A DNA stretch of 57,781 nucleotides from Planctomycetota bacterium (lineage in GTDB: Bacteria > Planctomycetota > JBFWNO01), in assembly GCA_050251015.1 (NCBI GenBank), contig JBFWNO010000004.1, forward strand, positions 1-57,781, written 5' to 3'. The notes under the pieces are model-generated. The model made no database searches. It was not told the DNA's origin and saw only the letters and a list, made by a program, of their open reading frames with translations. Both the position numbers and the translations under genes were made by a program. Shown here one piece after another: positions 89-29,488 of the stretch; position 1 is the first letter of the stretch; each line of letters starts with the position of its first letter.

Positions 89-1054
89 ATGACCATTCCC
101 TGGACCTGCCCCATGGTGGATGGAATTCCGGACGCCAGTGACCATTTTGATGAGCGCACCAGGACGCAGGCCGCCCTGCATGATGCCAAGGGGGCCGGCC
201 GCATCAACCCATGGCCCGGTGTGCCGGTCACCCTGATGCAGGCCCAGAGGGAGCGTTGGTTGAAGGCGTTGCGCCTGACTCCGCTGGGTGCAGGGGCCGA
301 CCCGCGTGTCGGCCCACCCCTTGTGCTTGAAATCGGCTGTCACCGCAGTGGCGTGCTGGAGACCTTTGCCAGGGTCGGATGGTCTGTCGCCGGGGTGGAT
401 GTGAGCCGTGCCAGCATCGTTGAGCAACATATGAGACACCCGGGCTGTTTCGCCGTGGCGCCGGCGGAACACATCCCATTGCCCGATGCTTCCGTGGACG
501 TGGTGCTGGCCATCCACGTGCTTGAGCATGTCTCAGACCGTGCCAAGGCCCTCGCCGAGGTGGCGCGCGTGCTCAAGCCCGGCGGCCTGGCCTTCCTGGA
601 GGTACCGCTCAAGGATCCGGGATTCAGCTGGGACGGGTGGCAACGGTGGGTGGACCAAGAGGCCTGGGAAAGGGGAGCTGCCGGAGCCGGTCACGAGATG
701 GTGCGCTTGCCCGTTTCCAAGGTGCTTCTGGGGGAATTGTTGGCGGCAGGCTTGTCGATCCAAAAAGTTGAGCGCGGATGGCGATGGATGGGGCCACTGC
801 TCGATCGGTTGTTGCAGGCTGTGGTCCGTGTTCAATCGTCATTCCCGCGTACGCGGGAATCCATCTTGAAGCCCCCCACCCCGCCCTCCCCCCAAGAGGG
901 GGAGGGATGCCAGAAGTCGGGAACCAACCTGGTGCGTCGCATCATTGGTGTGTTTCTGCGTCTTCTCGACATACTCGAACACCGGCTGATTCCCGGTACC
1001 CACGGGGGCACCCTGTTGGTCTTGGCGGCCAAGCCTTCAGGTGTAGTAGCGTAG
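89..1054 (+). CDS. Class I SAM-dependent methyltransferase with an in-frame palindromic-repeat insertion near the C-terminus
   Basis: SAM-binding LEIGCHRSG, VDVVLAIHVLEHV and LKPGGLAFLEV. The C-terminal tail GGTLLVLAAKPS parallels the tails of the MTs at 7371, 11822 and 21667. Start not verified. The 3' end overlaps the convergent gene by 18 nt. Confidence 0.75.
   Translation: MTIPWTCPMVDGIPDASDHFDERTRTQAALHDAKGAGRINPWPGVPVTLMQAQRERWLKALRLTPLGAGADPRVGPPLVLEIGCHRSGVLETFARVGWSVAGVDVSRASIVEQHMRHPGCFAVAPAEHIPLPDASVDVVLAIHVLEHVSDRAKALAEVARVLKPGGLAFLEVPLKDPGFSWDGWQRWVDQEAWERGAAGAGHEMVRLPVSKVLLGELLAAGLSIQKVERGWRWMGPLLDRLLQAVVRVQSSFPRTRESILKPPTPPSPQEGEGCQKSGTNLVRRIIGVFLRLLDILEHRLIPGTHGGTLLVLAAKPSGVVA
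841..906. repeat. Composite palindromic (REP/MITE-like) element inside the methyltransferase CDS
   Basis: Perfect 20-bp palindrome ATTCCCGCGTACGCGGGAAT (841-860), then a CCCTCCCCC (884-892) CAAGA GGGGGAGGG (898-906) hairpin. Region 871-906 matches the reverse complement of 10237-10272 at about 33/36 positions by hand alignment. It translates in frame as SSFPRTRESILKPPTPPSPQEGEG. Confidence 0.6.
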
Positions 1055-2341
1055 CTGGATGGCCCAGACGAAATAGAGGTTCAGGGTCAGCATCATGACA
1101 AGGGTCGCCACCCGCACCCACGGGTGGCGGGAGAGAAACACCATGTTGATGATGAGTCCCATCGGCAGCCAGTAACGGCCCGATAGCATGTGGCCGGACA
1201 CCGACAGCCGCGAAAATTCCCCGACGAATAAGACAATCGTGAAGATGACAAGGCAGATCAGCAAGGTCCTGACGATCCAACGTGTCGGCCTCAGGAGTGT
1301 TCGGGCGCCATAGAAGCCGAGACAGGCCGTGCCCAGGGCAATGACCTTGTAGCTCCATTCCGGCATTGTGCAGTCTTGCCACCCCAAGGAACCCCAATAA
1401 TGGATGAACATCCATTTGAGGCTTAGGGGGATCTGCACAATGTATTCGATCAGGGAGTCATGGGCGGGTGTTCCCATAAAGTAAGGAGGGTTCCATGAAT
1501 AGTAAGCGGCCCAGGATCCTGCGCCAACGGCCCCAGTGAGCATGGATGCGCGCAAGAGGGCCCGGCGCTTCCTGGCTTTTTCAAGGTAGGCCGCAATGGC
1601 AAGGCCAAAAAACAATGAAGCTGCCATTGGAAGAAACGAGGCCTTGATGCTGGCGAGAGTCAGCAAGCCACCCAGGAACGCTGCAGGTCGATGAGACCTC
1701 CGGAGAAAGATGATTAGACTCAGGAGCGTCCATGTGGCTATAGGCAGTGTGAATGCATCACTGTTCACTGATGAGCTGAGGTAGATCACCATGGGATTGA
1801 GCATCAGGCTGGCCAACAGTAGCGGAGTGCCCCTGAACGGAAGAGCCCGCCCGGCCAAGTGCAGGGTCAGCATCCAAAGGATGGCGGCGTAGAGTGCTGT
1901 GATCCATCGATAGGTCAGAAAGCTGTCCCAAGGGGAAAGCCTGCAAAGTTGGGTCAAGGCATGGGCGGGTCCATGCACCGCCCAGTAATAGAGAGTGGGA
2001 TGGTGGTGGTGGTAGGTGAAGGCTGGCACATGGTCACCCGGGGGATTCCAATCCAATTGGCGGAGGATGACAAGATCTCCGGAAGATAGTTTGCGATCCA
2101 ATTGGAAAATGGAGTCCACCAACAGAGGATTTCCATCAAATGGAGTGGCACGATCAGAAGGAATCAAAGGGTTGGTCGAATCCAATGTGAATGGATGGTC
2201 GGAAAGGGACAGGCAACGGTTGAGGTGGCTCCCTTCGTCCGGACCCGATCCTGGAGGATGGAGTGTGCACCAAAACGCTAGATACGCAAAATAGAGAAGG
2301 AAGCCGAGAATCCATTTCACCCTGGGAAGTCGTGGCCTCAT
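1037..2341 (-). CDS. Polytopic membrane protein, DUF2142-like / GT-C-fold glycosyltransferase candidate
   Basis: Multi-TM ORF with the acidic first-loop motif GSGPDEGSH (PDE..H is typical of DUF2142). The ORF is open to 2428, but the ATG at 2341 forms an ATGA overlap with the stop of the upstream gene (2338-2340), which matches the coupling pattern of the locus. An ATG at 2350 is an alternative start. Confidence 0.7.
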   Translation of the reverse strand: MRPRLPRVKWILGFLLYFAYLAFWCTLHPPGSGPDEGSHLNRCLSLSDHPFTLDSTNPLIPSDRATPFDGNPLLVDSIFQLDRKLSSGDLVILRQLDWNPPGDHVPAFTYHHHHPTLYYWAVHGPAHALTQLCRLSPWDSFLTYRWITALYAAILWMLTLHLAGRALPFRGTPLLLASLMLNPMVIYLSSSVNSDAFTLPIATWTLLSLIIFLRRSHRPAAFLGGLLTLASIKASFLPMAASLFFGLAIAAYLEKARKRRALLRASMLTGAVGAGSWAAYYSWNPPYFMGTPAHDSLIEYIVQIPLSLKWMFIHYWGSLGWQDCTMPEWSYKVIALGTACLGFYGARTLLRPTRWIVRTLLICLVIFTIVLFVGEFSRLSVSGHMLSGRYWLPMGLIINMVFLSRHPWVRVATLVMMLTLNLYFVWAIQLRYYT

Positions 2342-3957
2342 CGGTGACATTGATACAGGGTGAAGCCATTGCTGGTTGCCAAGGGTGTGGCAAGGCTTTT
2401 GATTTTCAGGGTGTTTTGTCGTTTCCATGCCTCAAAGGCTTCCACATGTGAGGCCAACGACTTGGATGTGCCCATCAAGGCAGGCCGATTTGATGTGGGT
2501 TGATCCGCAAGGATGAGATGGGTGACGCCAAGTGCCTTGAATGTTGTGGGCCAATCATCTCCAAACATTCGAGCATCGGAATGCAACATGACAAAGATGG
2601 ATCTGCCAGGGAGGTTCCATTCGGGACCGCGCTCTGAATACACCACAGCCAGTTCAGGCAAATCGGTGGCGAGATGATCCTCCAAGGATGGGGTGGGGGC
2701 ATTCCATAGTGTGGCCAGTCCCGGTTTCAGCTTGAGGTCCCACCACGAGGGCAGGCCTCTGACGGAAAAGAGCGAGAGGGAACAGAGCAACATGACTCCA
2801 CTTAAGGATCGGGGCAGTTTCCAGGAGCCCACTCCGATGAGGATCAGGGGAACAACATAGAGTAGAAATCGTTCTTGGGGGAAGGCGGCCCACCATGCCA
2901 GCAGGCTTCCCGCAACACTCCACATCAAGGGGGATTGCCGGTTCCGTAAGGCCCAAAAGATCCAAGGAACAAAGAAGGGCGAGACTCTCCAGAACACCGT
3001 GGTGGCGATCTCCATCGCATGAAAGCGTTGGGCATGAAAAGCCAGTTCATTCAATTGGGTATCCAGAGAGAACAAGTGGGCTGATTGGGCTTCACCCAGT
3101 ATTCCATAGGTTTGGGGAAAGAGAAAGAATCCCAAAGCACTCCATTGCACGCATCCGATAGCGAGGGTTGTCATGATGAACAGGCCGAGATGGGTCCGTG
3201 TGACACGGCGTTGCCAGATGGCAAGGGCTAACGGAGCCGCTAAAAGGACGGGGATCGTGACCTTGATGCCAAAGGTCAGACCCAAGGCAAGGCATTCGCC
3301 CTTTGTCGGGCTGCGTGTGGCCAGGACCTGCAACAGCTTGCATGTGATGTAAATCCCCAGCATGTCGATAAGGGCCTCCTGGCAAAGGATCCAGGTCAGG
3401 GGGATGCCCAACCAGGCCAAGGCCATCGCCACGGGGTGTTCCTTGGCGTTGTCGCGGATCCAGCGCAGGATGGCGATGGCGCAGATGGCTTGCATCCCTA
3501 TGGCAGCCGAGATCAAGGTCTGATTATCGAATCCCCAGGCTGAAAGCAGAAGGTGGGGGAAGCCCATCAAGGAGTGGTAGAAGGAGGTGCCATCGATGGC
3601 ACTGAGGCCAAAGCGATGGACATCGCGGGGTATGCGCAATTGGTACATGGTCACATCAAAGATCCCCGGCTCAAGGCGGGTGGCGGGATAGGCCAGGAGG
3701 TAGAGCCCATGCTCGACCCTGTCAAACAGGGTGCGCCAACCTTTTATCCAGCCCCAGGCTGATCCCGCGGCAAAAAGAGCGAAGGCGGCGTGGGGGTGCC
3801 AAGGGTTTGCGGCTACGGCCACAATCGATGCCACGGGAAGTGAGATGGCAAAAACCGTGAAAAGATCCCAGCCCCTGGCCTTGGAGACGTGGGCCAGGAG
3901 CATCCAGAGCCCGGGGATGATGATGAAGTATGATGCAAGGGCCATGAAATCCATCAT
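2338..3957 (-). CDS. Polytopic membrane protein with a C-terminal soluble domain; GT-C-like; paralog of 12586..14217
   Basis: 539 aa with about 12 hydrophobic segments. The block YLLAYPATRLEPGIFDVTMYQLRIPRDVHRFGLSAIDGT aligns with YLVIWPASLLPITQYDALHYQLRIPRSIHRIGLSVVDGT of 12586..14217. Confidence 0.75.
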   Translation of the reverse strand: MMDFMALASYFIIIPGLWMLLAHVSKARGWDLFTVFAISLPVASIVAVAANPWHPHAAFALFAAGSAWGWIKGWRTLFDRVEHGLYLLAYPATRLEPGIFDVTMYQLRIPRDVHRFGLSAIDGTSFYHSLMGFPHLLLSAWGFDNQTLISAAIGMQAICAIAILRWIRDNAKEHPVAMALAWLGIPLTWILCQEALIDMLGIYITCKLLQVLATRSPTKGECLALGLTFGIKVTIPVLLAAPLALAIWQRRVTRTHLGLFIMTTLAIGCVQWSALGFFLFPQTYGILGEAQSAHLFSLDTQLNELAFHAQRFHAMEIATTVFWRVSPFFVPWIFWALRNRQSPLMWSVAGSLLAWWAAFPQERFLLYVVPLILIGVGSWKLPRSLSGVMLLCSLSLFSVRGLPSWWDLKLKPGLATLWNAPTPSLEDHLATDLPELAVVYSERGPEWNLPGRSIFVMLHSDARMFGDDWPTTFKALGVTHLILADQPTSNRPALMGTSKSLASHVEAFEAWKRQNTLKIKSLATPLATSNGFTLYQCHR

Positions 3958-3978
3958 AACTCCCTATGGGAAGGGCAC

Positions 3979-4926
3979 ATGAAGACGGCACCCGTGGCGG
4001 TTTCAGTGGTCATTGTTTCATGGAATTCAAGAAACCATCTGGCCATGTGCCTTCCTTCCCTGGTGAACCAGGCCGGGGTGCCGATCGAGGTGATTGTGGT
4101 GGACAACTTCAGCCGCGATGGATCGGCCGATTTTGTGAGGCGGGAGTTTCCCTCCGTGCGCCTGATGGCCTTGAAGGACAACCTCGGGTTTGGCCACGGC
4201 TGCAATGTGGGCGCCAGGGAAGCCGTGGGTCGTCACATCCTTTTCCTCAATCCCGACACCGTGGTGGCCCAGGGGTGCATCGAAACGTTGGCCGCCTGGC
4301 TCGACAGCCACAGTGCGGCGGGGGCCGTGGCTCCTCGACTCCAGAACCTGGACGGGAGCCTCCAGCCCAGTGCCCGCCGTTTGCCCACTCTCTGGGGGGA
4401 GTTCTGCCAGGAGTTCAGGCTCAGTTCCCTGTTTGCCCAATCGGAGATGTTTTCTTCGTACTACATGGCGGGCTGGGATCACGCTGTCGAGCGCACGCTT
4501 GAGGCCGTGACGGGTGCCAGCTTCATGATCCGGCGGGAGGTCTTCAATCGCATCGGGGGCTTTGATGCCGAATTTTTCATGTACTACGAAGAGATGGATC
4601 TCTTCAAGAGATTGCGTCAGTCGGGCTATACCCTCACCTATCTTCCTTCGGCCTGCGTGGCCCACGTGGGCGGGGGGTCCACAGGGGGCTTCAATGCCCT
4701 GAGCCATGGCTGGCTTCTGAATTCGAGGGTCCTGTACCACAGCAAGGAGTCGGGTGAGTCGGCGGTGTGGATCCTTTGGGTGATCCATGTGATGTCCGCC
4801 GTGGTGGTGGGACTGTTTGCCATCCTGGCGGATGTCCTGGGGGTTGCCCCAGAAAAGGCCCGAGTCCACAGGGAGCGCAGCCGGTTCACCCTCACCCACG
4901 TGCTGGGCCGGACCCTGGGCCCATGA
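3979..4926 (+). CDS. Glycosyltransferase family 2
   Basis: VSVVIVSWNSRNHLAMCLPSL, VVDNFSRDGS, NLGFGHGCNVG and an FLNPDT acidic motif. This is the typical GT-A/GT2 N-terminal architecture. Confidence 0.85.
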   Translation: MKTAPVAVSVVIVSWNSRNHLAMCLPSLVNQAGVPIEVIVVDNFSRDGSADFVRREFPSVRLMALKDNLGFGHGCNVGAREAVGRHILFLNPDTVVAQGCIETLAAWLDSHSAAGAVAPRLQNLDGSLQPSARRLPTLWGEFCQEFRLSSLFAQSEMFSSYYMAGWDHAVERTLEAVTGASFMIRREVFNRIGGFDAEFFMYYEEMDLFKRLRQSGYTLTYLPSACVAHVGGGSTGGFNALSHGWLLNSRVLYHSKESGESAVWILWVIHVMSAVVVGLFAILADVLGVAPEKARVHRERSRFTLTHVLGRTLGP

Positions 4927-5927
4927 ACATCGGCATCACGATTCCCTCGCTCCACGTGGCCGGGGGGATCAAATGCCTCCTCAAGGTGGCCTCGGGGCTT
5001 CGGGCCCGCGGGCACAAGGTGACCTGCTATTGGCGCAGTTATTCCACACTCAACCACCTCAAGTCGCTTTTCATCCCGCCGATCGTCCGCTGGACGGAGG
5101 AGCCGCACCAGGTGGTGCCGGTGCTCGAGTGGAGCGACATCCCCCGTCACGACGCCCTGATCGCCAGTTCCTGGCGCACCGCAACCCCGGTCTGCGCCTG
5201 GTCGCAATCAACGGGAGGCAAGGGTCTTTATTACATCCAGCATCACGAAGCCATGTGGGACGGGGGGGAGGAGGCGGCCGCCACCTACAAACTTCCCCTG
5301 AAGCAGGTGGTGATCTCTTCGTGGCTCCAGACCACCATGAAGCAGGTGTATGGTCAGGAGAGCACGGTGTTGGTGACCCCGGTGGATGAGGCGCTGTTCC
5401 AGGAAGTCAATCCTCGCCCCGACCGCCCCCAGCGCGTCCTGTTGCTCCATCACACCTTCGATTGGAAAGGTTTTCCCGAGGGGGTTGCGGCAATTGAAGA
5501 AGTGCGCAGGACACACCCCCGCCTCCAACCCGTGGTGCTGGCGGGTCGCGAAAGGCCCGCAGGTTTGCCTGCGGGATATGAGGTGCACTTTCAGCCGGGT
5601 CCCAAGGAGCTCCGCCAACTCTATGCCGGATGTGGCATCTTCCTGTGTTCTAGCTGGCACGAAGGCCTGGGAATGCCCGCTATGGAGGCCATGGCCACAG
5701 GGGCCCTCTTGGTCACCACGGATACAGGGGGTTCGCGAGACTATGCCATCCAGGGGCAAACAGCCTGGGTAAGTCTCCCCCGCGACCCCAAGGGCCTGGC
5801 CCGGGGTCTAGCCCAGGGCCTCGAACGGTGGGATGAACTGGAACCGATGCGGCACAAGGGGCAGGCAAAGATCCGTGAATTTCAATGGGGGAGGAACCTG
5901 GATATCCTGGAGTCACTGCTCCGATGA
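4923..5927 (+). CDS. Glycosyltransferase family 4 (GT-B)
   Basis: The ATG at 4923 (MNIGITIPSLHVAGGIK) forms an ATGA overlap with the upstream stop. E-x7-E region: HEGLGMPAMEAMATGALLVTTDTGG. The longer ORF from 4767 is read-through of the upstream gene in another frame. Confidence 0.8.
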   Translation: MNIGITIPSLHVAGGIKCLLKVASGLRARGHKVTCYWRSYSTLNHLKSLFIPPIVRWTEEPHQVVPVLEWSDIPRHDALIASSWRTATPVCAWSQSTGGKGLYYIQHHEAMWDGGEEAAATYKLPLKQVVISSWLQTTMKQVYGQESTVLVTPVDEALFQEVNPRPDRPQRVLLLHHTFDWKGFPEGVAAIEEVRRTHPRLQPVVLAGRERPAGLPAGYEVHFQPGPKELRQLYAGCGIFLCSSWHEGLGMPAMEAMATGALLVTTDTGGSRDYAIQGQTAWVSLPRDPKGLARGLAQGLERWDELEPMRHKGQAKIREFQWGRNLDILESLLR

Positions 5928-7354
5928 TCCGCCGCCTTGTGATGCTGATGGCTGTCGCATTGTTAGCATCGGTGGCCTTCCTGGGTTGGCGCATTTGTGA
6001 GAGCCGTCTCTACGAGGTCAAGGGCCTGGAGTTTCATGTGGTCCATTCCCTGCAATCGCTCCGTCGAACGGGAACAGCCTACCCCGATCCCGCCCAGCCG
6101 CCCCACCTGCTCACCCAATACGGCCCCCTTTATTACCGCTTGGTGTCGGCTCAGGCCCCTCAGGGTCTGGACCCGATCGACTTGATCACGGCCGGGCGCA
6201 GGGTCTCGGGATTCCTTTCCCTGGCCTTGCTCGCGGTTTTGGGAGGGCTTGGCCTCCGTCTGGGTTTGGGATGGACATTGCTCTTGCCCACCCTGGCCCT
6301 GGCCCTGGCGGAAGTGGCCCCTTGGATTTTTCTATGCCGCCCCGATGCCCTGACCCTCCTCTGTTTCATGGCGGCTGTGGGCTCCTTCATGAGGGCGGTG
6401 CCGGGCGATGTGGGCAGGGGCGGGCCCTGGCCGGCTCTCGCCGCCGGGGTCTGGTCAGGGCTTGCTCTCTTGAGCAAACAATCGGCCATCATGCTTCTCC
6501 CGTTGTTTCCGGTCTTGGGATGGTGGGGTGGGCGCAGGGCCTTTGTTCCGGCAGTGGCCGGATGTGTGGCCGTCCTCGGTTCGGCTCCATGGGTGGCGGG
6601 GGCTCCATGGGGGCAACTGCTCACACAATTGATGCTCGGCATGAACAACGGGACAAGCCTGATCGAGGCCCTTCATCGGGCCTATGAGCCCGCCTCTCAT
6701 GTCTTTCCGTTGCATGCGGCAGCCCTGGTGGTGGCGTGGGGTGTGCTTCGGGACCATAGGACTAGGTTGGCGCAGAGCATGCTGGCTACAGCCTACATTG
6801 CCGCGTTTGTGCTTGCGGCCATCAGCGCCTTGAAAGTGGGTTCGGCCTGGCACTATTTCAACGAAAGCGTGGTCTGTGCCTTTCTGCTAGTGGGGTGGAA
6901 GTTGACCGACCTTTCGAAGACGGGACGCATGACCTCGTCGCTCTGGGCCCTGCTTATCCTTTCGGTAATGGCACACGGCTCGTTCACGGCCTTGCGAAGA
7001 CACAACATGTATTACCAAGCCCTGCCCCAGGTTTTCAGGCTCACACCGGAAGTCGCCCGATATGTTGAAAAAGTGATGGCATCTGGATCCGATGATCTCG
7101 CCTTCACTCCCGACAGGGAGCTGCCACTGTGGGTGCCCGGTTGTTTTGTTTTCCCCCAACCCTACTTCGCCGAGGTGCTCCACGAGGTCAATCCCGACCC
7201 CGGCTCTTGGCTCCGCCAGGATGTGGCATCGGGGAGATTGCGATGGTTGGTGCTTCCTGAGGACACCCAGCCCTCGGCGTGGCTTGGCGAAACCTTCGAA
7301 GGCTTTGAATTTGAGGCTTCCGTGCCCCCGTTTGACATCTGGCGCCGGCGTTGA
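5924..7354 (+). CDS. Polytopic membrane protein, GT-C-like (PMT_2/ArnT-like layout) with a C-terminal soluble domain
   Basis: ATG at 5924 (MIRRLVMLMAVALLASVAF) with an ATGA overlap. About 11 hydrophobic segments followed by a soluble tail of about 110 aa. No specific family motif recognised. Confidence 0.7.
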   Translation: MIRRLVMLMAVALLASVAFLGWRICESRLYEVKGLEFHVVHSLQSLRRTGTAYPDPAQPPHLLTQYGPLYYRLVSAQAPQGLDPIDLITAGRRVSGFLSLALLAVLGGLGLRLGLGWTLLLPTLALALAEVAPWIFLCRPDALTLLCFMAAVGSFMRAVPGDVGRGGPWPALAAGVWSGLALLSKQSAIMLLPLFPVLGWWGGRRAFVPAVAGCVAVLGSAPWVAGAPWGQLLTQLMLGMNNGTSLIEALHRAYEPASHVFPLHAAALVVAWGVLRDHRTRLAQSMLATAYIAAFVLAAISALKVGSAWHYFNESVVCAFLLVGWKLTDLSKTGRMTSSLWALLILSVMAHGSFTALRRHNMYYQALPQVFRLTPEVARYVEKVMASGSDDLAFTPDRELPLWVPGCFVFPQPYFAEVLHEVNPDPGSWLRQDVASGRLRWLVLPEDTQPSAWLGETFEGFEFEASVPPFDIWRRR

Positions 7355-9010: not shown

Positions 9011-9017
9011 TGGAGTG

Positions 9018-21666: not shown

Positions 21667-22392
21667 ATGAGCCTCCCCATGCCCAAGGAAAGCCAGGAAC
21701 GCGTGAAAGACTCTCTGGAGTTTCTTTCCAGTGTCTACAACTACAACCATTGGATCGCCCGCACCCTAGAGCCTTTTTGTGGTGCCCGGATCCTGGAACT
21801 GGGATGCGGGATCGGGAGCATGGTGCCCTATTTCCTGACAAGGAAGGCCTTCTTGGGAGCCGACAACGATCCGAGGTTTGTGGCGTATTGCGAAGAGCAG
21901 TACAAGGATCACCTGAATTGCCGCTTCTTTCATGGTGACCTCGCCAAGCGGGAACTCGCCCTCCCGGAAGGCGCCGTGTTTGACACCATTCTCAGCCTGA
22001 ATGTGATCGAGCACCTGGAAGACGATGTGGGGGCTCTGGAGTACATGGCGAGCCTGGTTCCGGATGGCGGCAATCTGGTCCTTCTCCTTCCTGCCCACCC
22101 CTCCATCCATGGCCATCTTGATGATGTGGTGGGACATTTCCGCCGCTATTCCAAGGAAGACCTGCTTGCCAAGATCGGCCGTGTGGGATTGCGCACAGCC
22201 AGCTGCTTTTATTTCAACGTGGTGGGCTATGTTGGATGGGGGCTCAACAGCAGGGTCTTGGGCCGCAGTCGCATTCCTGTGAAGAGTACCCTCATGTATG
22301 ACAAATACATTGTCCCCCTGCAGGCCTGGTTGGAGGGATTGATCCATCCTCCTTTCGGACAATCCATCATCCTGCACGCCGTCAAGACATGA
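21667..22392 (+). CDS. Class I SAM-dependent methyltransferase
   Basis: ILELGCGIGSM, FDTILSLNVIEHLEDD, PDGGNLVLLLP. The C-terminal tail GQSIILHAVKT resembles those of the other three MTs. Confidence 0.85.
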   Translation: MSLPMPKESQERVKDSLEFLSSVYNYNHWIARTLEPFCGARILELGCGIGSMVPYFLTRKAFLGADNDPRFVAYCEEQYKDHLNCRFFHGDLAKRELALPEGAVFDTILSLNVIEHLEDDVGALEYMASLVPDGGNLVLLLPAHPSIHGHLDDVVGHFRRYSKEDLLAKIGRVGLRTASCFYFNVVGYVGWGLNSRVLGRSRIPVKSTLMYDKYIVPLQAWLEGLIHPPFGQSIILHAVKT

Positions 22393-23891
22393 AGGTCTCG
22401 GTGGTGGTGCCAGTGGCCGATGCTTCGCGCAATCGCCTGCTTGCGGATCTCTTGGAGTCGCTCAAGAAACAGACACTCCGGGACTTTGAGGTGATCCTGG
22501 TGGAAGGCGACAGCCGCCAGGGCCGGGCCATCAACCAGGGCGTTCGGGTGGCACGAGGCGAGTGGATCGTGACCATGGATGATGACACGATGATCTTGGA
22601 TGACGATCTGTTGGCATGCCTTGTGGCTCGCATGGAGGAGGCGCCGGAAATCGGCCTGGGGGGAGCGGCCTGTGTGATCCCTGATTCTGCCTCTGCCTTC
22701 CAGAAGCGGGCCATGCTGGAGGTTCCCCGCAGGCAATTCCCTGTCCAGGAATCCACCGTGGACAGCGATTTTGTTCAGCATCCCTGCCTGATTATCCAAA
22801 GGGATCTCTTCATGGCGATCGGGGGCGAGGATGAGGAATTGGTGAGAGGGCTTGATCCGGTCCTGCGCAAGAAAGTCAGGGATAGAGGGAAGAGGGTGGC
22901 CATTCTTGCCGGAACCCGTGTGGCCCACTTGGTCCCGGATTCTTTGGGTGCCTTGGTGAGGATGTACCGCCGCAATGGGCGGGGCTCGGCCTTTGCCTCG
23001 AGGTTTTTCCCCGGAAGGGTCCTGGAATTGACAGATGGGTTTGACGGAGGAAGCTTTGTGGAAACCCGGCCCCTGGGATACAGGGTCCAACGGAGGATGA
23101 GGGGTTTCATGGCCGACCTATGGCATGGCCGATGGCTTTCACTCTCCTGTCAGGCGGGCTATGTGACGGGTTGGGTGGAGGGATTTCTTGAGGGCGGTTT
23201 CCCGGGTTCTTCGCCTCGGGTGTATGGCGAGCCATCTTCTCCTGAGGGACAGCCACCCGTGCGTCGCCTGCGGGCCGTGGTCGGCCCCCCTTCGACTGAT
23301 GAGCAGATTGCCCGCATGCATGTGAACCCCACGAGGGATTTCTGCATGGGGTCCGAAACCAGCCCCGTCCTAGACTTCTATCGTGATAAGGTGGGACTCT
23401 TCCGTCAGTTTGAACCACAGGGTGTCTTGGTGGAACAGAATGCATCGGGTGAAGTCTTGGGCTTTCTCCTCTTGAACATTCATCCCGGCAAGTTCAAGAA
23501 GCGGCTCCTGATGAGTGCCTATCCTTTGCGATATCTCTGGAGTCTCGTCACCCGGCGTTACAAGGGAAGCCGGGAAGGTTGGCGCAAGTGGTGGAGGCTT
23601 CCCCTGGCCTTTATCCGCAAACCCAAGGGGGCCCCCGGATCCGGTGGTGCCAAGGTTTTGGCGTTCATTGTGAGGGAGGACCAACGGGGCCAAGGGATCG
23701 GGAGTGCCCTCCTTCGCCGCGCCGAGAGTGAGACCCTGCGCAGGGGCAAGCATCACCTCGAAGTCACGGTGGCCAAGGACAATGCCAAGGCCATCAGGGT
23801 CTATGAGAAAGAAGGTTACAAGATCACTGGCGAATTGCTGGAAAGCACGGGACAGAGCTACTATCTCGAGAAACCTGTCGGCGTCCCGTGA
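22389..23891 (+). CDS. Fusion protein: N-terminal GT2 glycosyltransferase plus C-terminal GNAT N-acetyltransferase
   Basis: N-terminus: KVSVVVPVADASRNRLLADLLESLKKQT, FEVILVEGDS, IVTMDDDT. C-terminus: VLAFIVREDQRGQGIGSALLRRAE...LEVTVAKDNAKAIRVYEKEGYK (GNAT motif A, Q/RxxGxG). ATGA overlap at the start. Confidence 0.8.
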   Translation: MKVSVVVPVADASRNRLLADLLESLKKQTLRDFEVILVEGDSRQGRAINQGVRVARGEWIVTMDDDTMILDDDLLACLVARMEEAPEIGLGGAACVIPDSASAFQKRAMLEVPRRQFPVQESTVDSDFVQHPCLIIQRDLFMAIGGEDEELVRGLDPVLRKKVRDRGKRVAILAGTRVAHLVPDSLGALVRMYRRNGRGSAFASRFFPGRVLELTDGFDGGSFVETRPLGYRVQRRMRGFMADLWHGRWLSLSCQAGYVTGWVEGFLEGGFPGSSPRVYGEPSSPEGQPPVRRLRAVVGPPSTDEQIARMHVNPTRDFCMGSETSPVLDFYRDKVGLFRQFEPQGVLVEQNASGEVLGFLLLNIHPGKFKKRLLMSAYPLRYLWSLVTRRYKGSREGWRKWWRLPLAFIRKPKGAPGSGGAKVLAFIVREDQRGQGIGSALLRRAESETLRRGKHHLEVTVAKDNAKAIRVYEKEGYKITGELLESTGQSYYLEKPVGVP

Positions 23892-24967
23892 AGATCGCGG
23901 TGGTCAGCGACTACCTCGACCCCCTCAATTGGGGAGGGGCCTCCAGGGTAGCGGCAATGCAGGCCCGGGAATTGACCCGCGAAGGCCATGATGTGCTCCT
24001 GCTGGGGGCATCCTCCAGTCTGGCCCGAGTGGGATCCTGTCGTCATGTGGCCTTTCCCCATCGGCCTGGTCTGCGTGGAGCCTGGAGCCTCCGGCGCCAT
24101 GTGCGAGCCCATGTGGGGGCCTTCGCTCCCGACCTTGTGGTGGCCCATCAGCCCCTGGTGGCCAGATTTGTGATCGAACAGTTTCCCCTGGTGCGGTTGC
24201 GGTATGTCTTCCATTCGAGTTGGAGCGCCGAGGTGGAGGCCAGAGGAGGCCGGCCTGGCATGAGACGAAGGGTGGAGCGCCATGTCCTCCGCAAGGCGGA
24301 AAGGATCTTTTGCACCAGTCCCTTCACGTTGGGGGAGCTCGAGCGAACCGAGGCGTCATCCTTGCACAAATCGAAAGTCAACCCCTTGGCGGTAGAGAGT
24401 CCTCCCTTTATCCCTGATCCTGGTAGGGAAGAGTGGGTCCGACGCACCCACGACATTCCGCCAGGGATGAAGGCCGTGGCGGTCTTCCGGAGGCTGACAG
24501 CAAGAACGGGCGTTGATCTTGCCATTCAGGCAGTGAAAGAGTGCCCTGAGGTTTTCCTCCTTGTGGGAGGCACCGGAGAGCAGGCCGGAGCCATGCGGGA
24601 ACTGGCCGCCAACGAAGGCATTTCAGACAGGTGCCGCTTTCTGGGCTATGTGCCCGAGGATCAGATGGTCTCCCTCCTCCAGGGGGCCTCTGCCGTGATG
24701 GTGCCCAGCAGGGACCTTGAGGGATTCGGGCTCTCCACACTTGAGGCCATGGCCTGCGGGTGCCCGGTGGTGGCGACGGATGTGGGGAACAACAGGGCCT
24801 TGGTGGAGCAATGTGCCGGTGGTGCCCTGTCCGATGGCGAGGGACCCGTGGCCCTGGCATCGGCCCTGCGCCGGGTCTTGGGATCTTCATGGGACAGGGT
24901 GGCCATGGGACAAAGGGTCCGCCAGTCGTTCAGCTGGAACAGGCATGTTCAGGAGCTATTGTGCTGA
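23888..24967 (+). CDS. Glycosyltransferase family 4
   Basis: GTG start in a GTGA overlap. MKIAVVSDYLDPLNWGG. E-x7-E region SRDLEGFGLSTLEAMACGCPVVATDVG. Confidence 0.85.
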   Translation: MKIAVVSDYLDPLNWGGASRVAAMQARELTREGHDVLLLGASSSLARVGSCRHVAFPHRPGLRGAWSLRRHVRAHVGAFAPDLVVAHQPLVARFVIEQFPLVRLRYVFHSSWSAEVEARGGRPGMRRRVERHVLRKAERIFCTSPFTLGELERTEASSLHKSKVNPLAVESPPFIPDPGREEWVRRTHDIPPGMKAVAVFRRLTARTGVDLAIQAVKECPEVFLLVGGTGEQAGAMRELAANEGISDRCRFLGYVPEDQMVSLLQGASAVMVPSRDLEGFGLSTLEAMACGCPVVATDVGNNRALVEQCAGGALSDGEGPVALASALRRVLGSSWDRVAMGQRVRQSFSWNRHVQELLC

Positions 24968-24972
24968 GATTC

Positions 24973-26400
24973 ATGCCCCTGTTTTTTTTGGCCTTGTACA
25001 CGATGACGCTCATGCCCGGCGTGGGATGGGGGGACGAAGCCAAATATCAGGTTGAGGCCCTCACGCTTGATTGGCCGCGTGAGGCGGGGCTTCATGGTCT
25101 CTATGCCATTGTGAGCGCTCTCTTCGTGCAGGCCTGGCCTTGGGGTTCAGTGGCCTACAAGGCGAATCTGTTTTCCGCTGTCTGTGCAGCAGCGGCCCTG
25201 GCCGTTTTCATCCGGGTTCTGCGGACGCTTGGGATCTCACAGCGCTCGACTGCCCTTGCCACCTTGACCCTGGGGCTTTCGCACACCTTCTGGACCCATG
25301 CCACTTGGGCCGAAAGCTATCCCTTGTTTGCCTGCCTTTGGATTGGTGCCGTGGGTGTTGGGATGCGTTACCTGATGGAGGGTCACCCGCGTGACTTGGC
25401 CCTGACCCTCGGGCTCTTCGGCCTCACGCTTTGGGTCAACCTGATGGCCACGCAGGGTTTGGCGGCCTTCCTGTGTTGCGCGGTGCTTTTGAGACCCGAG
25501 TGCCGGAAGCTGCCGGCTTGGAAGATCCCCTTGCTGGCGCTCCTGGTGGGCCTTTCCCCATGGCTGGGGCGGCTTCTCTGGGCGCTGGGCGTTGAGAAAA
25601 TTCCCTTGGACCTTGTGTTGATGCGGGCCTTCGAACTCGACTTTGCGCACCAGTTATGGATCCGACATTCTCCCTCAGACTGGATCCGTGGGGCGCGGGC
25701 CTTCCCCCTGTATTTTCTGTATCAATTTGGGCTGATGGCTTTCTATTTCACCCGTCTGAGGCGATTGCCTGCCAGGGTCTGGCTCTTCCCTGTCCTTTTG
25801 ACTCTTCTCATCATGCTCTTCTGCTCCACCTTCCTTCCCCAGCGCACGGTGTGGGTGTTGATGGCTGCTTGGCTTCCCCTGTTTCTCCTGATGGCGACTT
25901 GCCTTGATGTCTCGATGCCAGCAACACCCAGAATGTTCATTCTGCCGTTGCTGACCGTGGCGGGGTACGCCTTGCTGTCGTATTCAGTGCAGATATTCTT
26001 GGATCAACACCCTGCTGCAAGATCCTTTTCCATTTTCCACGCCGAACCTGTTGGCACGAGAAACGCTGCCGCAATATTTTTGAAACCTTGGAAGCAGGAT
26101 GAACGTTCCGCTCAGGACTACATTGATGAGGTTGAGTCGACGCTCAAGGCCAAAGACATGATTGTCTGCGACTTCACCCCGGCGGCCACCCTGCGATACG
26201 CCAAGGAGGTCGAGGGGCGCCTGCACAACATCACGATCGCTTACCTCCGAGATGACCTCAATTCCGTGCTGTCCTCGGCACCACCCGGAACCGGGCTTTG
26301 GCTCGGGAGAGATTCCGCAGAGTTCCACAGGCGCTTGGATGGCATGCGATGGCGTACGGAAAAAGTGGGTTCCCTGTTGAGGGTGGAGAAGCGTCCGTGA
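24973..26400 (+). CDS. Polytopic membrane protein, DUF2723/TMEM260-like GT-C candidate
   Basis: MPLFFLALYTMTLMPGVGWGDEAKYQVEAL resembles the DUF2723 N-terminal signature (Y..T..PgV..gD..E). About 11 hydrophobic segments and a soluble C-terminal domain. An alternative GTG start lies at 24961. Confidence 0.7.
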   Translation: MPLFFLALYTMTLMPGVGWGDEAKYQVEALTLDWPREAGLHGLYAIVSALFVQAWPWGSVAYKANLFSAVCAAAALAVFIRVLRTLGISQRSTALATLTLGLSHTFWTHATWAESYPLFACLWIGAVGVGMRYLMEGHPRDLALTLGLFGLTLWVNLMATQGLAAFLCCAVLLRPECRKLPAWKIPLLALLVGLSPWLGRLLWALGVEKIPLDLVLMRAFELDFAHQLWIRHSPSDWIRGARAFPLYFLYQFGLMAFYFTRLRRLPARVWLFPVLLTLLIMLFCSTFLPQRTVWVLMAAWLPLFLLMATCLDVSMPATPRMFILPLLTVAGYALLSYSVQIFLDQHPAARSFSIFHAEPVGTRNAAAIFLKPWKQDERSAQDYIDEVESTLKAKDMIVCDFTPAATLRYAKEVEGRLHNITIAYLRDDLNSVLSSAPPGTGLWLGRDSAEFHRRLDGMRWRTEKVGSLLRVEKRP

Positions 26401-27569
26401 TGCGCGTGGCCCATGTCATCACCCGTCTTTGTGCAGGGGGAGCCTCGGAAGCCCTGCGGACTCTCGCTGAGGCCGTCGATGCCAAACGGTTCACCTTGGA
26501 CGTGCTTCATGGCGACGTGGAACCTGGCGAGACGGATGTTTCCGGCGAAGTCGGTCAGGCATTCAAGGCCAAGTTCCGGCTGTCTTCCATGAGACGGTCC
26601 GTGCGCCCATGGAGGGATTTCAGGGCACTTCAAGAGTTGGCTCGGGTGTTGAGGGAGGGTCGCTATGACCTCGTGCACACCCATACGTCCAAGGCCGGCA
26701 TCCTGGGAAGGATGGCCGCCCATCAAGCCGGGATACCTTCGGTGCATTCCACTCATGGCCACATCTTTGCGCCTGGAGCCGGCATTCCCGGCGTGGGTGC
26801 CCTCACGCGTCCAGTGTTTCTTGCACTCGAGCGCCACAGTGCAAGGCGATGCCGCCGCATTTTCACCCTATCCGAAAGGGAGAGGCAGGATTGGATCTCC
26901 ATGGGTGTGGCCCCGGCATCTCTTTATGAAGTCTTGCCCTCCCCGCTCGATGCAAGAAGACTCTTGGCGGCCCGCCCCCGCCGCGATGGATTGAGAAAGG
27001 AGTGGGGGATCGAACCGGGTGTTCCCGTGATCGTGATGGCCGGAAGGCTGGCGGCAGAGAAGGGCCATGCCACGGCGATACGGGCCCTGGCGCAGGGACT
27101 TGACGGTCAGCTTTGGATCGCGGGCGACGGACCCTTGCGACCCTCGCTGATGAACCTCGTGGCAGCGATGGGACTCGGTGCCCGTGTGCGTTTTCTGGGC
27201 CATCGACCGGATTTCCAGGATTGGCTTCCCCTGGCGGATGCCCTGGTGATGCCCAGTACCTACGAGGGCCAGGGCTTGGTGGCGTTGGAAGCCTTTGCCG
27301 CCGGAGTCCCTGTGGTGGCCTCGAACGTGGGCGGGGTTCCTGAAATCGTGGTGCATGAAGTGTCGGGGTTGCTGGTGCCACCCGGGGACAGTGCGGCGCT
27401 GGCAATGGCATTGCGGCGTCTGCAACGGGAGCCAGGGCTTGCCGCAGGCTTGGCAATAAGGGCACTTTCCAGGATCGAGGCTTTCGACCCCGCCACACTG
27501 GCGAAGCGCTTGGAAACGGTATACCTTGAGGTGGCCCCGTTGGATGGCCAACGGTCAAGCTTGAGATAA
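26400..27569 (+). CDS. Glycosyltransferase family 4
   Basis: MRVAHVITRLCAGGASEAL. E-x7-E region STYEGQGLVALEAFAAGVPVVASNVGGVPEIV. The start overlaps the upstream stop by 1 nt (TGATG). Confidence 0.85.
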   Translation: MRVAHVITRLCAGGASEALRTLAEAVDAKRFTLDVLHGDVEPGETDVSGEVGQAFKAKFRLSSMRRSVRPWRDFRALQELARVLREGRYDLVHTHTSKAGILGRMAAHQAGIPSVHSTHGHIFAPGAGIPGVGALTRPVFLALERHSARRCRRIFTLSERERQDWISMGVAPASLYEVLPSPLDARRLLAARPRRDGLRKEWGIEPGVPVIVMAGRLAAEKGHATAIRALAQGLDGQLWIAGDGPLRPSLMNLVAAMGLGARVRFLGHRPDFQDWLPLADALVMPSTYEGQGLVALEAFAAGVPVVASNVGGVPEIVVHEVSGLLVPPGDSAALAMALRRLQREPGLAAGLAIRALSRIEAFDPATLAKRLETVYLEVAPLDGQRSSLR

Positions 27570-27578
27570 GATACGCCC

Positions 27579-28307
27579 ATGTTCGACCCCAAGGCCCACA
27601 TGGAGGAGTTCCTGTCACGCCAACGCCTCTTGGTGGTGGCTCCCCACCCAGATGACGAGACGGCCGGTGCCGGCGGACTGATCACCAGGGTCAAGCGTGC
27701 TGGTGGGCAGGCTTTTGTTTCCGTGCTCAGCACGGGTTGCCTGGACCATTTTGATGGCAAAAAGGGCACGGTGGATGGTGATGAGCGGGGCCAGGAACTT
27801 GCCGATGCCATGAAAGTCCTGAAGGTAGATGATTATGAGATCCTCCTGCCCAACGACACGCTTCACATGCAGCTCGACACCCTGCCCCGCAAGCAGTTGA
27901 TCGATCTCATCGAACGCTCGGGAAGGCTATCCACGGAGAAGGTCAAGCCCACCATGATTGTCCTGCCGGCGCCCAGCTTCAACCAGGATCACGAGGCTGT
28001 CTACAAGGCGGGCATCTCGGCCTGCAGGCCGCACCTTTCGACCCTCAAGGCCTTCCAGCGTGTGGTGCTCATCGCCGATGCACCCCAGCTGTCGTGGACC
28101 AAAGAGATCTTCAAGCCCAATTTTTATGTGGATATCTCGGATTGCCTGGAAGTGAAGCTTGAAGCCTTCCGTCAGCACCGCTCCCAGCAAAGGCCGGCTC
28201 CCCACCAGGGTGGTGTGGATGCCCTGGAGATGCTGGCGCGGATGAGGGGGGCCGAGATCAGCGTGCATGCCGCCGAGGCCTTTGAAATCTTCAGGTTTGT
28301 GGCCTGA
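27579..28307 (+). CDS. PIG-L/LmbE-family N-acetylglucosaminyl deacetylase
   Basis: LLVVAPHPDDETAGAGGLI (AHPDDE signature) and FNQDHEAVY (HxDH-type zinc motif). Confidence 0.85.
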   Translation: MFDPKAHMEEFLSRQRLLVVAPHPDDETAGAGGLITRVKRAGGQAFVSVLSTGCLDHFDGKKGTVDGDERGQELADAMKVLKVDDYEILLPNDTLHMQLDTLPRKQLIDLIERSGRLSTEKVKPTMIVLPAPSFNQDHEAVYKAGISACRPHLSTLKAFQRVVLIADAPQLSWTKEIFKPNFYVDISDCLEVKLEAFRQHRSQQRPAPHQGGVDALEMLARMRGAEISVHAAEAFEIFRFVA

Positions 28308-29488
28308 TGGAATCGGCGGCAGTCTCGGATTCCCCAGTCCCGACGGCCAACGAAGGTCGGATTCTTGTCGTCGATGACGACAAGGGCATCCGCACAATCA
28401 TTGCGACAGTCCTGAAGAAAGCCGGATTCGAGATCCAGCAGGCTGGGAATGGGCAGGAAGGGCTCGAGATCGCCCGTTCCTTGCGACCCGATGTGATCTT
28501 CTCGGATTGGATGATGCCCGTGATGGACGGATTGGAGTTCTGCCGTCAGGTCAAGGCCGACAAGGAGCTCAAGAACACACTCTTTGTTTTGTTGACGGCG
28601 AAGACCGAAACGGAAGACAAGGTCTCGGGCCTTGAGACGGGGGCCGACGATTACCTCACCAAGCCCTTCAAGCATGTGGAGATCATCGCCAAGGCGAAGG
28701 CCGGGATGCGCATCCGCAATCTGCAAAAATCATTGGAAGTTCAGAATGAGGAGCTCAAGAGGCTCCATGCGCTGAAGGATGAATTCCTTGGCATGGCCGC
28801 CCACGACATGCGCAACCCCTTGAGTGTGATCAAGCTCTGGTCCGACAGCATTCTTGAGGGGATCATGGGAGAAGTTCCCGAAAAGCAGGCCCACGGCGTG
28901 AAGATCATCATGACCCATGCCGACAACATGCTCCGCCTGATCAATGATCTCCTGGACATCCAGAAGATCGAGAGCGGGAAGTTGGTGCTCGACATCAAGC
29001 CCTTCCTGATCGGTGAATTGGTGACCCGCTTCCATGTGGCCAACAGGATCCTGGCCCAGGACAAGGGGGTGGACTTTACGGTGGATGTGCAGCCGGGGCT
29101 GGCTCCCGTCAAGTTGGACGAGGGCAAGATCGGCGAGGTGGTCAACAATCTCATGTCCAATTCGCTCAAGTTCTGCCGGAAGGGCGACAAGGTCGTTATC
29201 AAGGTCAGTGCCCCACAGCCCGGCCATCAGCTTGTGGAAGTGATCGACACGGGTCCCGGGATCCGTCCGGAGGAGCTTCCCAAGCTTTTCGGCAAGTTCC
29301 AACAGATCTCCACCAAGGCCACAGGGGGGGAGAAGGGCACAGGATTGGGGCTGAGCATCTGCAAAAAGATTGTAGAATTACATGGCGGCTCCATCGGGGT
29401 CCGCAGTACGTTCGGTGAGGGGGCCACTTTCCACTTCAGCCTTCCGGAAGCCGGCCCGCAATCCACAGCCACAACACAAGGAGCCTGA
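28307..29488 (+). CDS. Hybrid response regulator-histidine kinase (REC-HisKA-HATPase_c) with no TM or sensor domain
   Basis: REC domain: ILVVDDDKGIRTI...DVIFSDWMMPVMDGLEF...LTAKTE...DDYLTKPF. H-box: LGMAAHDMRNPLSVI. N/G boxes: NNLMSNSLKF, DTGPGI, GTGLGLSICKKIV. Confidence 0.9.
   Translation: MESAAVSDSPVPTANEGRILVVDDDKGIRTIIATVLKKAGFEIQQAGNGQEGLEIARSLRPDVIFSDWMMPVMDGLEFCRQVKADKELKNTLFVLLTAKTETEDKVSGLETGADDYLTKPFKHVEIIAKAKAGMRIRNLQKSLEVQNEELKRLHALKDEFLGMAAHDMRNPLSVIKLWSDSILEGIMGEVPEKQAHGVKIIMTHADNMLRLINDLLDIQKIESGKLVLDIKPFLIGELVTRFHVANRILAQDKGVDFTVDVQPGLAPVKLDEGKIGEVVNNLMSNSLKFCRKGDKVVIKVSAPQPGHQLVEVIDTGPGIRPEELPKLFGKFQQISTKATGGEKGTGLGLSICKKIVELHGGSIGVRSTFGEGATFHFSLPEAGPQSTATTQGA

Follow-up and report, generated by a model that had tools for sequence, protein, structure and literature searches.

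How does a bacterium assemble an envelope glycan from a gene cluster that is crowded with polytopic proteins resembling GT-C-type glycosyltransferases (GTs), when no exporter, polymerase or initiating enzyme is recognized beside them? This question is raised by a contig of an uncultured Planctomycetota bacterium (JBFWNO010000004.1, assembly GCA_050251015.1). The window that was analysed is this entire contig of 57781 bp; it opens with a sugar-polymer gene island of ~28 kb (89-29488), and 88 bp precede the first island gene. A first-pass annotation, made from the sequence of the window, had argued for assembly on the periplasmic face from polyprenyl-phosphate-linked monosaccharides. Part of this proposal stands, as two synthases for such donors occur together with GT-C proteins, but beside it a core made in the cytoplasm by enzymes with GT-A and GT-B folds is now favored. 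It is considered moderately probable that the operon-packed genes of the island serve to make an envelope glycoconjugate, with its assembly divided between two compartments.

Polytopic proteins and lipid-linked sugar synthases

Seven polytopic proteins are encoded within the island (M1 to M7) and an eighth (M8) lies outside it (Table 1). They have nine to 13 hydrophobic segments each and were found where the first-pass annotation had placed them. Its assignment of all these proteins to GT-C is supported for M1, M4 and M6, probable for M3 and tentative for M7, but no relation to GT-C proteins could be detected for M2 and M5. As judged from sequence and structure comparison, at least three of the seven island proteins, probably five and possibly all seven, are of the GT-C type.

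M4 and M6 are well supported by their sequence profiles as members of a group resembling ArnT and PMT_2. M4 itself has no Pfam match. In 5.8 billion clusters it has a single homologue, P0003 (38 % identity, 99 % coverage), which matches Pfam PMT_2 with an E of 2.4e-12 and 47.8 bits against a cut-off of 26.1; scanning of metagenomes with the M4 alignment gave no match. P0003 is encoded on a 2.2-kb contig (L084; JGI 3300059824, Ga0589498_08148806), between fragments of other small hydrophobic proteins. As this contig has a GC content of 45 %, compared to ~59 % here, the M4 family also occurs in an organism whose base composition is very different.

A profile of M4, P0003, M6, M3, M8, M7 and M1, with M8 taken from outside the island, aligns with E. 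coli ArnT at an hhalign probability of 92 % (E 6e-7, 242 columns). The family membership of the ArnT query was confirmed by a phmmer match to ArnT 5ezm (E 1e-31). In this alignment DE-x2-Y falls on PDETRY, the second acidic position on LDPF and K-x-S...LP on TKGFLALAVP. Among the controls, the probability was 0.2 % with reversed ArnT and did not exceed 1.6 % in 25 local shuffles. When each protein was left out in turn and aligned with the rest, probabilities were 99 % for M6, 96 % for M4, 57 % for M3, 10 % for M8, 2.7 % for M7 and 1.8 % for M1. M3, for which the reversed-sequence control reached 0.9 %, additionally matches M6 by BLAST (E 1e-3) and carries the KQS...LP motif; it probably belongs to the same group. 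Single-sequence hhalign comparisons among the paralogues were mostly uninformative. A homologue search with the combined M3, M6 and M7 profile recovered only M7 itself, and PDB sequence and profile searches with M4, M6, P0003, A1, A2 and A4 returned no GT-C entries.

For M6, an AlphaFold2 (AF2) model was built from the seven-paralogue alignment (predicted local distance difference test (pLDDT) 46, predicted template modelling score (pTM) 0.40). Its six best Foldseek matches in the PDB are all GT-C enzymes, i.e., ArnT 5ezm (E 2e-3), ArnT 5f15, ALG3, STT3 twice and PimE, with ALG6, Pmt1/2 and ALG9 among the lower matches. The predicted structure and the profile together give good support to M6 as a GT-C protein; its Pfam match to ALG10 (E 0.1) is under the cut-off.

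M1 is well supported by sequence as a GT-C-type protein of a family separate from the M3/M4/M6 group, with a match to DUF2142, which we take to be a member of the Pfam GT-C clan. M7 is tentatively a GT-C protein, perhaps TMEM260-like, in view of its sub-threshold model match, its GDEAKY motif and its gain to the ArnT match, which falls from 58.9 to 44.1 when M7 is taken out of the paralogue group. No curated GT-C family model in Pfam or NCBIfam was matched by M2, M3 or M5. Membership of the GT39 PMT family was considered and rejected, as only PMT_2-type signals were obtained and there was no PMT, MIR or PMT_4TMC match at E up to 10.

The motifs quoted in the first-pass annotation (PDEGSH, ATDEGTY, GDDGFFQY, GWGDEAKY and RDDESGY, as well as a YQLRIPR loop, present in M2 and M5) were all found, and its description of an acidic first loop holds in part. 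A DE/DD-x2-3-Y/H motif occurs in M1, M4, M6, M7 and M8, 20-45 residues from the N-terminus and after the first hydrophobic segment, but the acidic motif is absent from M3, and the D-x3-Y of M2 and M5 comes only after three to four helices. Among the C-terminal tails of the polytopic proteins, similarity is confined to the pair M2/M5. The same annotation had allowed that some of these proteins could be polymerases or ligases; with the E limit relaxed to 10, there is still no match between any of the eight and a model for Wzx, Wzy, WaaL, MATE or transporters.

Besides these membrane proteins, the island encodes two GT2 enzymes of the GtrB/ArnC type, GT2b and GT2c, as had been proposed. They match ArnC and PgfS over their full length (E 1e-41 to 1e-68), with all scores under the equivalog cut-offs (ArnC 168 bits vs 529; PgfS 230 vs 500), and are well supported by sequence as polyprenyl-phosphate sugar synthases by type. 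The two proteins are 30 % identical, and each has two C-terminal transmembrane (TM) helices followed by a GEY[IV]GRI...RP tail (GEYIGRIY in GT2b). Two features of a three-component Gtr-type system are thus present: synthases with C-terminal TM helices, and a GT-C partner, with M4 directly downstream of GT2b and M1, M6 and M3 in the same locus. Genomic association with the two synthase genes is what suggests that the putative GT-C proteins use polyprenyl-phosphate-sugar donors. Moreover, each synthase gene is translationally coupled to an S-adenosylmethionine (SAM) methyltransferase gene, in the arrangements MT2-GT2b (7371-9010) and GT2c-MT3-M5 (10866-14217). This coupling of MT2 and MT3 suggests that methylation is tied to the lipid-linked donors.

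The paralogues M2 and M5 are 27 % identical over their full length (E 2e-41), and neither has a Pfam, NCBIfam or PDB match. A homologue search with M2 returned only M2 itself, and a HMMER profile of the pair recovered, from 1.84 billion cluster representatives, only both proteins and two fragments; the fragment P0005 keeps the loop motif D-x3-YQ[LI]R[IV]PR-x3-R[FI]G-x4-DG[ST]. Both proteins are predicted to consist of ~12 helices and a 135-aa mixed alpha/beta tail. Comparison of the pair's profile with the PDB, ArnT and the other paralogues gave nothing significant. Three motifs that were picked by hand (D-x3-Y, K...P and Q-x-RF-x2-Y-x-VP) follow each other at distances of 130/130 residues in M2/M5, compared to 138/131 in M4 and 134/123 in M6. 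This is a lead, rather than a test, towards GT-C proteins with two extra N-terminal helices; the pair may also act as flippase, polymerase or ligase.

Gene island, contig edge and soluble enzymes

The island is 99.4 % coding, most adjacent genes overlap by 4 bp and the sole intergenic gap, of 189 bp, separates GT2b from M4, in line with the first-pass statement that coding density leaves no room for unlisted genes. A hybrid histidine kinase gene, the last one in the range (28307-29488), had been missing from its list. The codon-position order GC3 > GC1 > GC2 is found in every island gene, and the polytopic open reading frames (ORFs), with a GC3 of 0.66-0.71, above GC1 and that in turn above GC2, have the composition that is typical of coding sequence. 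An independent Logan assembly (run SRR27751816) calls M1, M2, M3 and M7 with boundaries that are identical or almost so; on one of its contigs (L083), M1 appears as the same gene call, GT4a as a protein of 334 aa, and MT2 is called as well.

Within the intergenic gap, an RNA hairpin is predicted that has a 23-bp stem and a weak U-tract downstream of it; termination, attenuation or stabilization of the mRNA are conceivable functions. The coding strand switches three times, at ~1040-1054 (convergent, MT1/M1), 3957/3979 and 15254/17363. In the divergent pair M2(-)/GT2a(+) the starts are 21-33 bp apart (3945-3979), and in SDR(-)/M6(+) the start codons share 2 bp (17363-17364). As nearly no DNA is left between these pairs, either the promoters are within coding sequence or the starts are annotated incorrectly.

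Pfam and NCBIfam scans of the ORFs provided the domain calls and bear out the gene inventory of the first-pass annotation (GT2s, GT4s, CE4, LmbE, GNAT, DegT and SDR). The set comprises five GT2 enzymes (two of the ArnC/GtrB/PgfS type and three others, one of which is fused to a GNAT domain), four GT4 enzymes, four class-I SAM methyltransferases, and genes for a CE4 deacetylase, an LmbE/PIG-L deacetylase, an SGNH-like protein, a DegT aminotransferase, a short-chain dehydrogenase/reductase (SDR) and the hybrid histidine kinase. MT1-MT4 are indeed paralogous, with 23-32 % mutual identity. Similarity was also found for the proposed SGNH esterase, but its 28.6 bits stay below the cut-off of 32.9. 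One N-terminal anchor each is predicted for the SGNH-like protein and the CE4 enzyme, and in NCBIfam the latter matches PgaB-type models, not ArnD. The longest DegT ORF shares 118 bp with the SDR gene; a start at the internal ATG at 16342 (MKIPFMPL...), which gives the usual 4-bp overlap, is likelier. A bacillithiol or mycothiol role for GT4d and LmbE was rejected, both being far under the equivalog cut-offs.

Table 1. Genes and other features of the island, with the outlying polytopic protein M8, in order of position.
Feature	Position	Strand	Evidence
MT1, class-I SAM methyltransferase	89-1054	+	Pfam Methyltransf_11 E 1e-21
M1, polytopic GT-C-type (DUF2142), PDEGSH after TM1	1037-2341	-	PF09913 E 1e-19, 71 bits vs cut-off 30, full-length
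M2, orphan polytopic, ~12 helices and 135-aa tail, M5 paralogue	2338-3957	-	27 % identity to M5
GT2a, GT-A glycosyltransferase, one C-terminal hydrophobic segment	3979-4926	+	Pfam Glycos_transf_2 E 2e-21; 30 % identical to GT2d
GT4a, GT-B glycosyltransferase	4923-5927	+	Pfam Glycos_transf_1 E 2e-16
M3, polytopic, probable ArnT/PMT_2-like GT-C without DE motif	5924-7354	+	hhalign vs other paralogues 57 %, E 1e-4
MT2, SAM methyltransferase	7371-8090	+	Pfam Methyltransf_23 E 1e-22; 4-bp overlap with GT2b
GT2b, polyprenyl-phosphate sugar synthase (PgfS/ArnC/GtrB type)	8087-9010	+	NCBIfam PgfS E 5e-68, ArnC E 6e-41, both full-length
RNA hairpin	9020-9110	+	only intergenic gap, GT2b/M4; minimum free energy -53.8 kcal/mol, z -7.0 vs shuffles
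M4, ArnT/PMT_2-like GT-C, ATDEGTY motif	9200-10864	+	homologue P0003 is PMT_2; hhalign vs other paralogues 96 %
GT2c, second polyprenyl-phosphate sugar synthase (ArnC type)	10866-11825	+	NCBIfam ArnC E 3e-49, PgfS E 4e-38, both full-length
MT3, SAM methyltransferase	11822-12589	+	Pfam Methyltransf_25 E 5e-11; 4-bp overlaps with GT2c and M5
M5, orphan polytopic, M2 paralogue	12586-14217	+	full-length match to M2
SGNH/GDSL-like esterase, N-terminal anchor	14214-15254	+	Lipase_GDSL_2 E 2e-6, below threshold
DegT/ArnB/PseC-type sugar aminotransferase	15251-16456	-	Pfam DegT_DnrJ_EryC1 E 4e-92; NCBIfam PseC E 6e-52, ArnB E 1e-46
SDR nucleotide-sugar 4,6-dehydratase/epimerase	16339-17364	-	Pfam Epimerase E 2e-47; NCBIfam LegB, RmlB-like E 1e-35
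M6, ArnT-like GT-C, GDDGFFQY motif	17363-18817	+	Foldseek of AF2 model; hhalign vs other paralogues 99 %, E 6e-19
GT4b glycosyltransferase	18814-19866	+	Pfam Glycos_transf_1 E 5e-36
CE4 polysaccharide deacetylase, N-terminal anchor (TM segment)	19874-20740	+	Pfam Polysacc_deac_1 E 6e-16
GT2d glycosyltransferase	20721-21656	+	Pfam Glycos_transf_2 E 5e-23
MT4, SAM methyltransferase	21667-22392	+	Pfam Methyltransf_12 E 5e-12
GT2-GNAT fusion	22389-23891	+	Glycos_transf_2 E 1e-12 and Acetyltransf_1 E 7e-13
GT4c glycosyltransferase	23888-24967	+	Pfam Glycos_transf_1 E 8e-30
M7, polytopic, tentative GT-C, GWGDEAKY motif	24973-26400	+	Pfam TMEM260-like E 0.087, 150/179 profile positions, below cut-off
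GT4d glycosyltransferase (MshA/BshA-like)	26397-27569	+	Pfam E 4e-36; NCBIfam BshA E 6e-31, below cut-off
LmbE/PIG-L de-N-acetylase	27579-28307	+	Pfam PIG-L E 4e-17
Hybrid response-regulator/histidine kinase	28307-29488	+	Pfam Response_reg, HisKA, HATPase_c; 1-bp overlap with LmbE gene
M8, eighth polytopic, outside island, RDDESGY	38084-39439	+	Pfam PMT_2 E 7e-4, 20.4 bits vs cut-off 26.1

The first-pass annotation had recognized neither an exporter nor an initiating enzyme. For the visible sequence this is correct: among all ORFs of the 57.8-kb contig there is no model match for Wzx, Wzy, Wzz, Wza, ABC transporters or a phosphoglycosyltransferase (PGT). Bac_transf, Glycos_transf_4, Polysacc_synt, Wzy_C and EpsG were matched by no contig ORF at E up to 0.01 and by no polytopic ORF at E up to 10, ABC_tran and ABC2_membrane (Wzm/Wzt-type) gave no match on the contig, and the GtrA, MATE and Polysacc_synt models gave none against the polytopic ORFs. 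Contig ORFs of 50-175 aa with at least three TM segments, which would be candidates for a GtrA- or SMR-like flippase, are absent, as are a formyltransferase domain and an SMR-like (ArnE/F) ORF. The window being the whole contig, with its edge 88 bp before the first island gene, such absence cannot be claimed for the genome. The 5' end of the contig is a run rich in G/C homopolymers, CCCCCGTGGGGGGGGTGGGGGGGGGGGGGCC; the G-run is probably behind an assembly break at this point, and the island may continue upstream. Exact-protein look-ups with MT1 and M2 yielded no longer assembly or syntenic relative, and the Logan contig that carries M1 stops inside MT1. A JGI metagenome scan with MT1 gave one unrelated match (32 %) and a GTDB scan with M1 gave none. 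Genes for priming and flipping may be located beyond the contig edge, upstream, or at another site in the genome; alternatively, M2 and M5 might perform these steps, or the lipid acceptor might need no PGT.

Downstream of the island, housekeeping genes are found (mnmG, gltX, gdh, icd, pyrB/C, lysC and a class-I tRNA synthetase gene), with M8 among them. Its gene is convergent with 39396-41120, which encodes a 574-aa extracytoplasmic function (ECF) sigma factor with a long C-terminal extension, and the two overlap by 44 bp. MnmG is at most 51 % identical to GTDB representatives among the matches listed, the best matches being spread across many phyla, and most island proteins have no close homologues; together, this points to a poorly sampled lineage. 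The longest ORF of a dCache-adenylate/guanylate cyclase gene (48606-50789) has its TTG start within a tRNA-Met gene (CAT, 48600-48675), so that the true cyclase start lies further downstream. Pfam at E up to 0.01 has no match for 52434-54569 (711 aa), 54545-55252(-), 55730-56899(-) and 56896-57399(-), and one ORF is cut off at the 3' contig end.

Proposed two-compartment assembly and competing explanations

The family assignments of the enzymes are shown; what we infer for the island is the sequence of events, together with acceptor, sugars, membrane topology and the part played by the methyltransferases. In this scheme, enzymes of the families described above would act on both sides of the membrane. 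An amino sugar, probably N-acylated, would be made in the cytoplasm by the SDR, the DegT aminotransferase and the GNAT domain. The seven cytoplasmic GT-A/GT-B enzymes (three GT2 and four GT4, including a GT4-LmbE pair) would build a lipid-linked core at the inner face of the membrane, while GT2b and GT2c would charge polyprenyl phosphate with monosaccharides, and the four methyltransferases would work on cytoplasmic intermediates. The core and the two polyprenyl-phosphate sugars would then be flipped to the outer face, where three to five, possibly seven, GT-C enzymes would form several linkages from two donors and the anchored CE4 and SGNH-like enzymes would tailor the product. Such a division between GT-A/B and GT-C enzymes is documented for phosphatidylinositol mannosides (PIM), lipomannan (LM) and lipoarabinomannan (LAM) (PMC7261415), and for Gtr-type three-component and multi-component systems (PMC11127046, PMC13390465, PMC12041528).

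Several points weigh against this two-compartment scheme. Confidence in the M6 model is low (pLDDT 46, with TM-scores of 0.30-0.38), and the model support for M7 and M8 is under threshold. The AF2 model of M2 has a pLDDT of 36 and its Foldseek matches are noise, so that the fold of M2 and M5 is not assignable. The hydropathy and positive-inside predictor that was used is too crude to place the acidic loops on a side of the membrane. With flippase, initiator, polymerase and exporter not visible on the contig, the pathway is incomplete as seen. In addition, the genes might serve several separate pathways instead of one, and they identify neither the acceptor nor the sugars.

One alternative is an ordinary undecaprenyl-pyrophosphate (Und-PP)-dependent locus for O-antigen, exopolysaccharide (EPS) or capsule, with the PGT and the exporter off the contig and the GT-C proteins and synthases only decorating the polymer after its polymerization, as in Gtr systems. 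The contig begins 88 bp before the first gene, with a G-run of the sort at which assemblies typically break, seven cytoplasmic GT2/GT4 enzymes suffice for a repeat unit, and polymers made by the Wzy or ABC route are well known to be decorated by Gtr-type systems (PMC11127046). This reading is nevertheless rather unlikely, as five to seven transferase-like polytopic proteins per two synthases are far above the one GT-C of each known decoration module, and 57.8 kb contain no exporter, PGT or copolymerase, nor a GtrA-like flippase. Comparably unlikely is a more specific form of the two-compartment scheme, in which no essential function would be missing from the locus and a deep-branching bacterium outside the Actinobacteria would make a lipoglycan like LAM or glycosylphosphatidylinositol (GPI), primed by GT4 enzymes on a membrane lipid (with GT4d-LmbE acting as PIG-A/PIG-L or MshA/MshB) and extended by GT-C enzymes outside the membrane, without PGT, Wzx, Wzy or ABC transporter. 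M2/M5 would then be the first members of a new family, either of GT-C proteins with two extra N-terminal helices or of flippases for the two polyprenyl-phosphate sugars, which are possibly methylated. A further view, to which still less probability is given, concerns M2 and M5, which would not be GTs but the missing machinery, i.e., a new family of lipid-linked sugar flippases or a polymerase/ligase resembling Wzy or WaaL. They are the only polytopic proteins without any GT-C link, there are two of them for two synthases, M5 is coupled to GT2c-MT3, their conserved loop is Arg-rich (YQLRIPR..R) like that of Und-PP-binding enzymes, and flippases belong to different families in different systems (GtrA, SMR or MATE; PMC11127046). 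However, neither Wzx, Wzy, WaaL, MATE and SMR models nor PDB sequences are matched, a TM block with a soluble C-terminal domain of ~135 aa is typical of GT-C proteins and unlike flippases, and the spacing of the three motifs is near that of M4 and M6.

The remaining explanations are both judged very improbable. PMT_2 is mostly an ArnT-like family acting on lipids and glycans, which counts against a machinery for protein O-glycosylation of the PMT or Pgf type that would transfer polyprenyl-phosphate sugars onto Ser/Thr-rich envelope or S-layer proteins, with the cytoplasmic GTs serving another glycan. Two points speak for this idea: among NCBIfam models GT2b matches PgfS best, and this protein, encoded in the Pgf operon for protein glycosylation in streptococci, works with GT-C partners (PMC12041528); M4 and M8, in turn, are related to PMT_2. 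The PgfS score of 230 is, however, far from the 500-bit cut-off, and the locus has neither MIR or PMT_4TMC domains nor a gene for a Ser/Thr-rich substrate. A mosaic of adjacent independent modules, for example an Arn-like amino-sugar modification of lipid A, a GlcNAc/LmbE module and methylated-sugar modules, would account for the three strand switches, the strong hairpin and the presence of Arn-like parts (DegT, SDR, ArnC-like, CE4 and ArnT-like genes). Against it stand the dense coding and the 4-bp overlaps between most neighbors, the lack of an ArnA formyltransferase domain and of ArnE/F genes, and the interleaving of the paralogue sets (MT1-4, GT4b-d, GT2a/d, GT2b/c, M2/M5 and M3/M4/M6) across the sub-operons.

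Comparison with known systems

In mycobacteria and corynebacteria, PIM, LM, LAM and arabinogalactan (AG) are made by the GT4 enzymes PimA and PimB, the synthase Ppm1 and the GT-C enzymes PimE, MptA/B/C, EmbA-C and AftA-D. The island resembles these pathways in the proposed use of cytoplasmic GT-A/GT-B enzymes on a lipid-linked primer followed by many GT-C enzymes that use few polyprenyl-phosphate sugars (PMC7261415), and in the clustering of several GT-C genes. It differs in that it has no UbiA-type decaprenylphosphoryl-5-phosphoribose (DPPR) synthase, no Glf/GlfT, no Emb/Aft enzymes or Emb-type C-terminal carbohydrate-binding domains and no GT87/PimE-family matches. Its GT-C proteins are instead ArnT/PMT_2-like, DUF2142 and possibly TMEM260-like, four methyltransferases and two deacetylases are added, and the host is not recognizably actinobacterial (MnmG at most 51 % identical among the matches listed). 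In the mycobacterial pathways, the priming enzyme does not necessarily lie inside the cluster.

Gtr-type systems (GtrA-GtrB-GtrC, CsbB-GtcA-YfhO and C. youngae ORF15-14-12) share with the island a GtrB/ArnC-type synthase with C-terminal TM helices that adjoins a GT-C gene, as in GT2b followed by M4; GT2c-MT3-M5 may be compared. Unlike in these systems, no GtrA, SMR or MATE flippase gene is seen on the contig, there are five to seven polytopic partners per two synthases instead of one each, and a methyltransferase is coupled to each synthase. The Arn system (PmrHFIJKLM) is similar in kind, with a DegT enzyme (ArnB-like, E 1e-46), an SDR with a weak match to ArnA over the dehydrogenase part (E 1e-8), an ArnC-like GT2 (E 3e-49), a CE4 enzyme (ArnD family) and an ArnT-like GT-C. 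However, no equivalog cut-off is passed (ArnB 159 bits vs 631; ArnC 168 vs 529), the ArnA formyltransferase domain and ArnE/F are missing, a GNAT stands in the place of the formyltransferase, and there are many extra GTs. With Wzx/Wzy- or ABC-dependent O-antigen, EPS and capsule loci, the island has in common a large size and a mixture of GT2/GT4 and sugar-modifying enzymes, but none of their defining features (PGT, Wzx, Wzy, Wzz, Wza, Wzm/Wzt) is found within the visible contig.

The first-pass annotation had called the concentration of GT-C genes unusual. It is not unprecedented: the mycobacterial arabinogalactan cluster is comparable, with about six GT-C genes in roughly 40 kb (the embCAB-aftA-aftB-Rv3779 region of M. 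tuberculosis), and the density seen here is high but not unique. The locus overturns no current model. If the two-compartment reading is true, an assembly plan for envelope glycans that is best known from mycobacterial LAM and arabinogalactan extends to a poorly sampled bacterial lineage, where strongly diverged ArnT-like, DUF2142 and possibly TMEM260-like enzymes would carry it out, and the coupling of methyltransferases to synthases hints at methylated donors. The building plan as such is known; what is new is the unusual divergence of the proteins in it, above all in M2/M5, a polytopic family with essentially no public relatives that is a candidate for a new GT-C family or a lipid-linked-sugar flippase.

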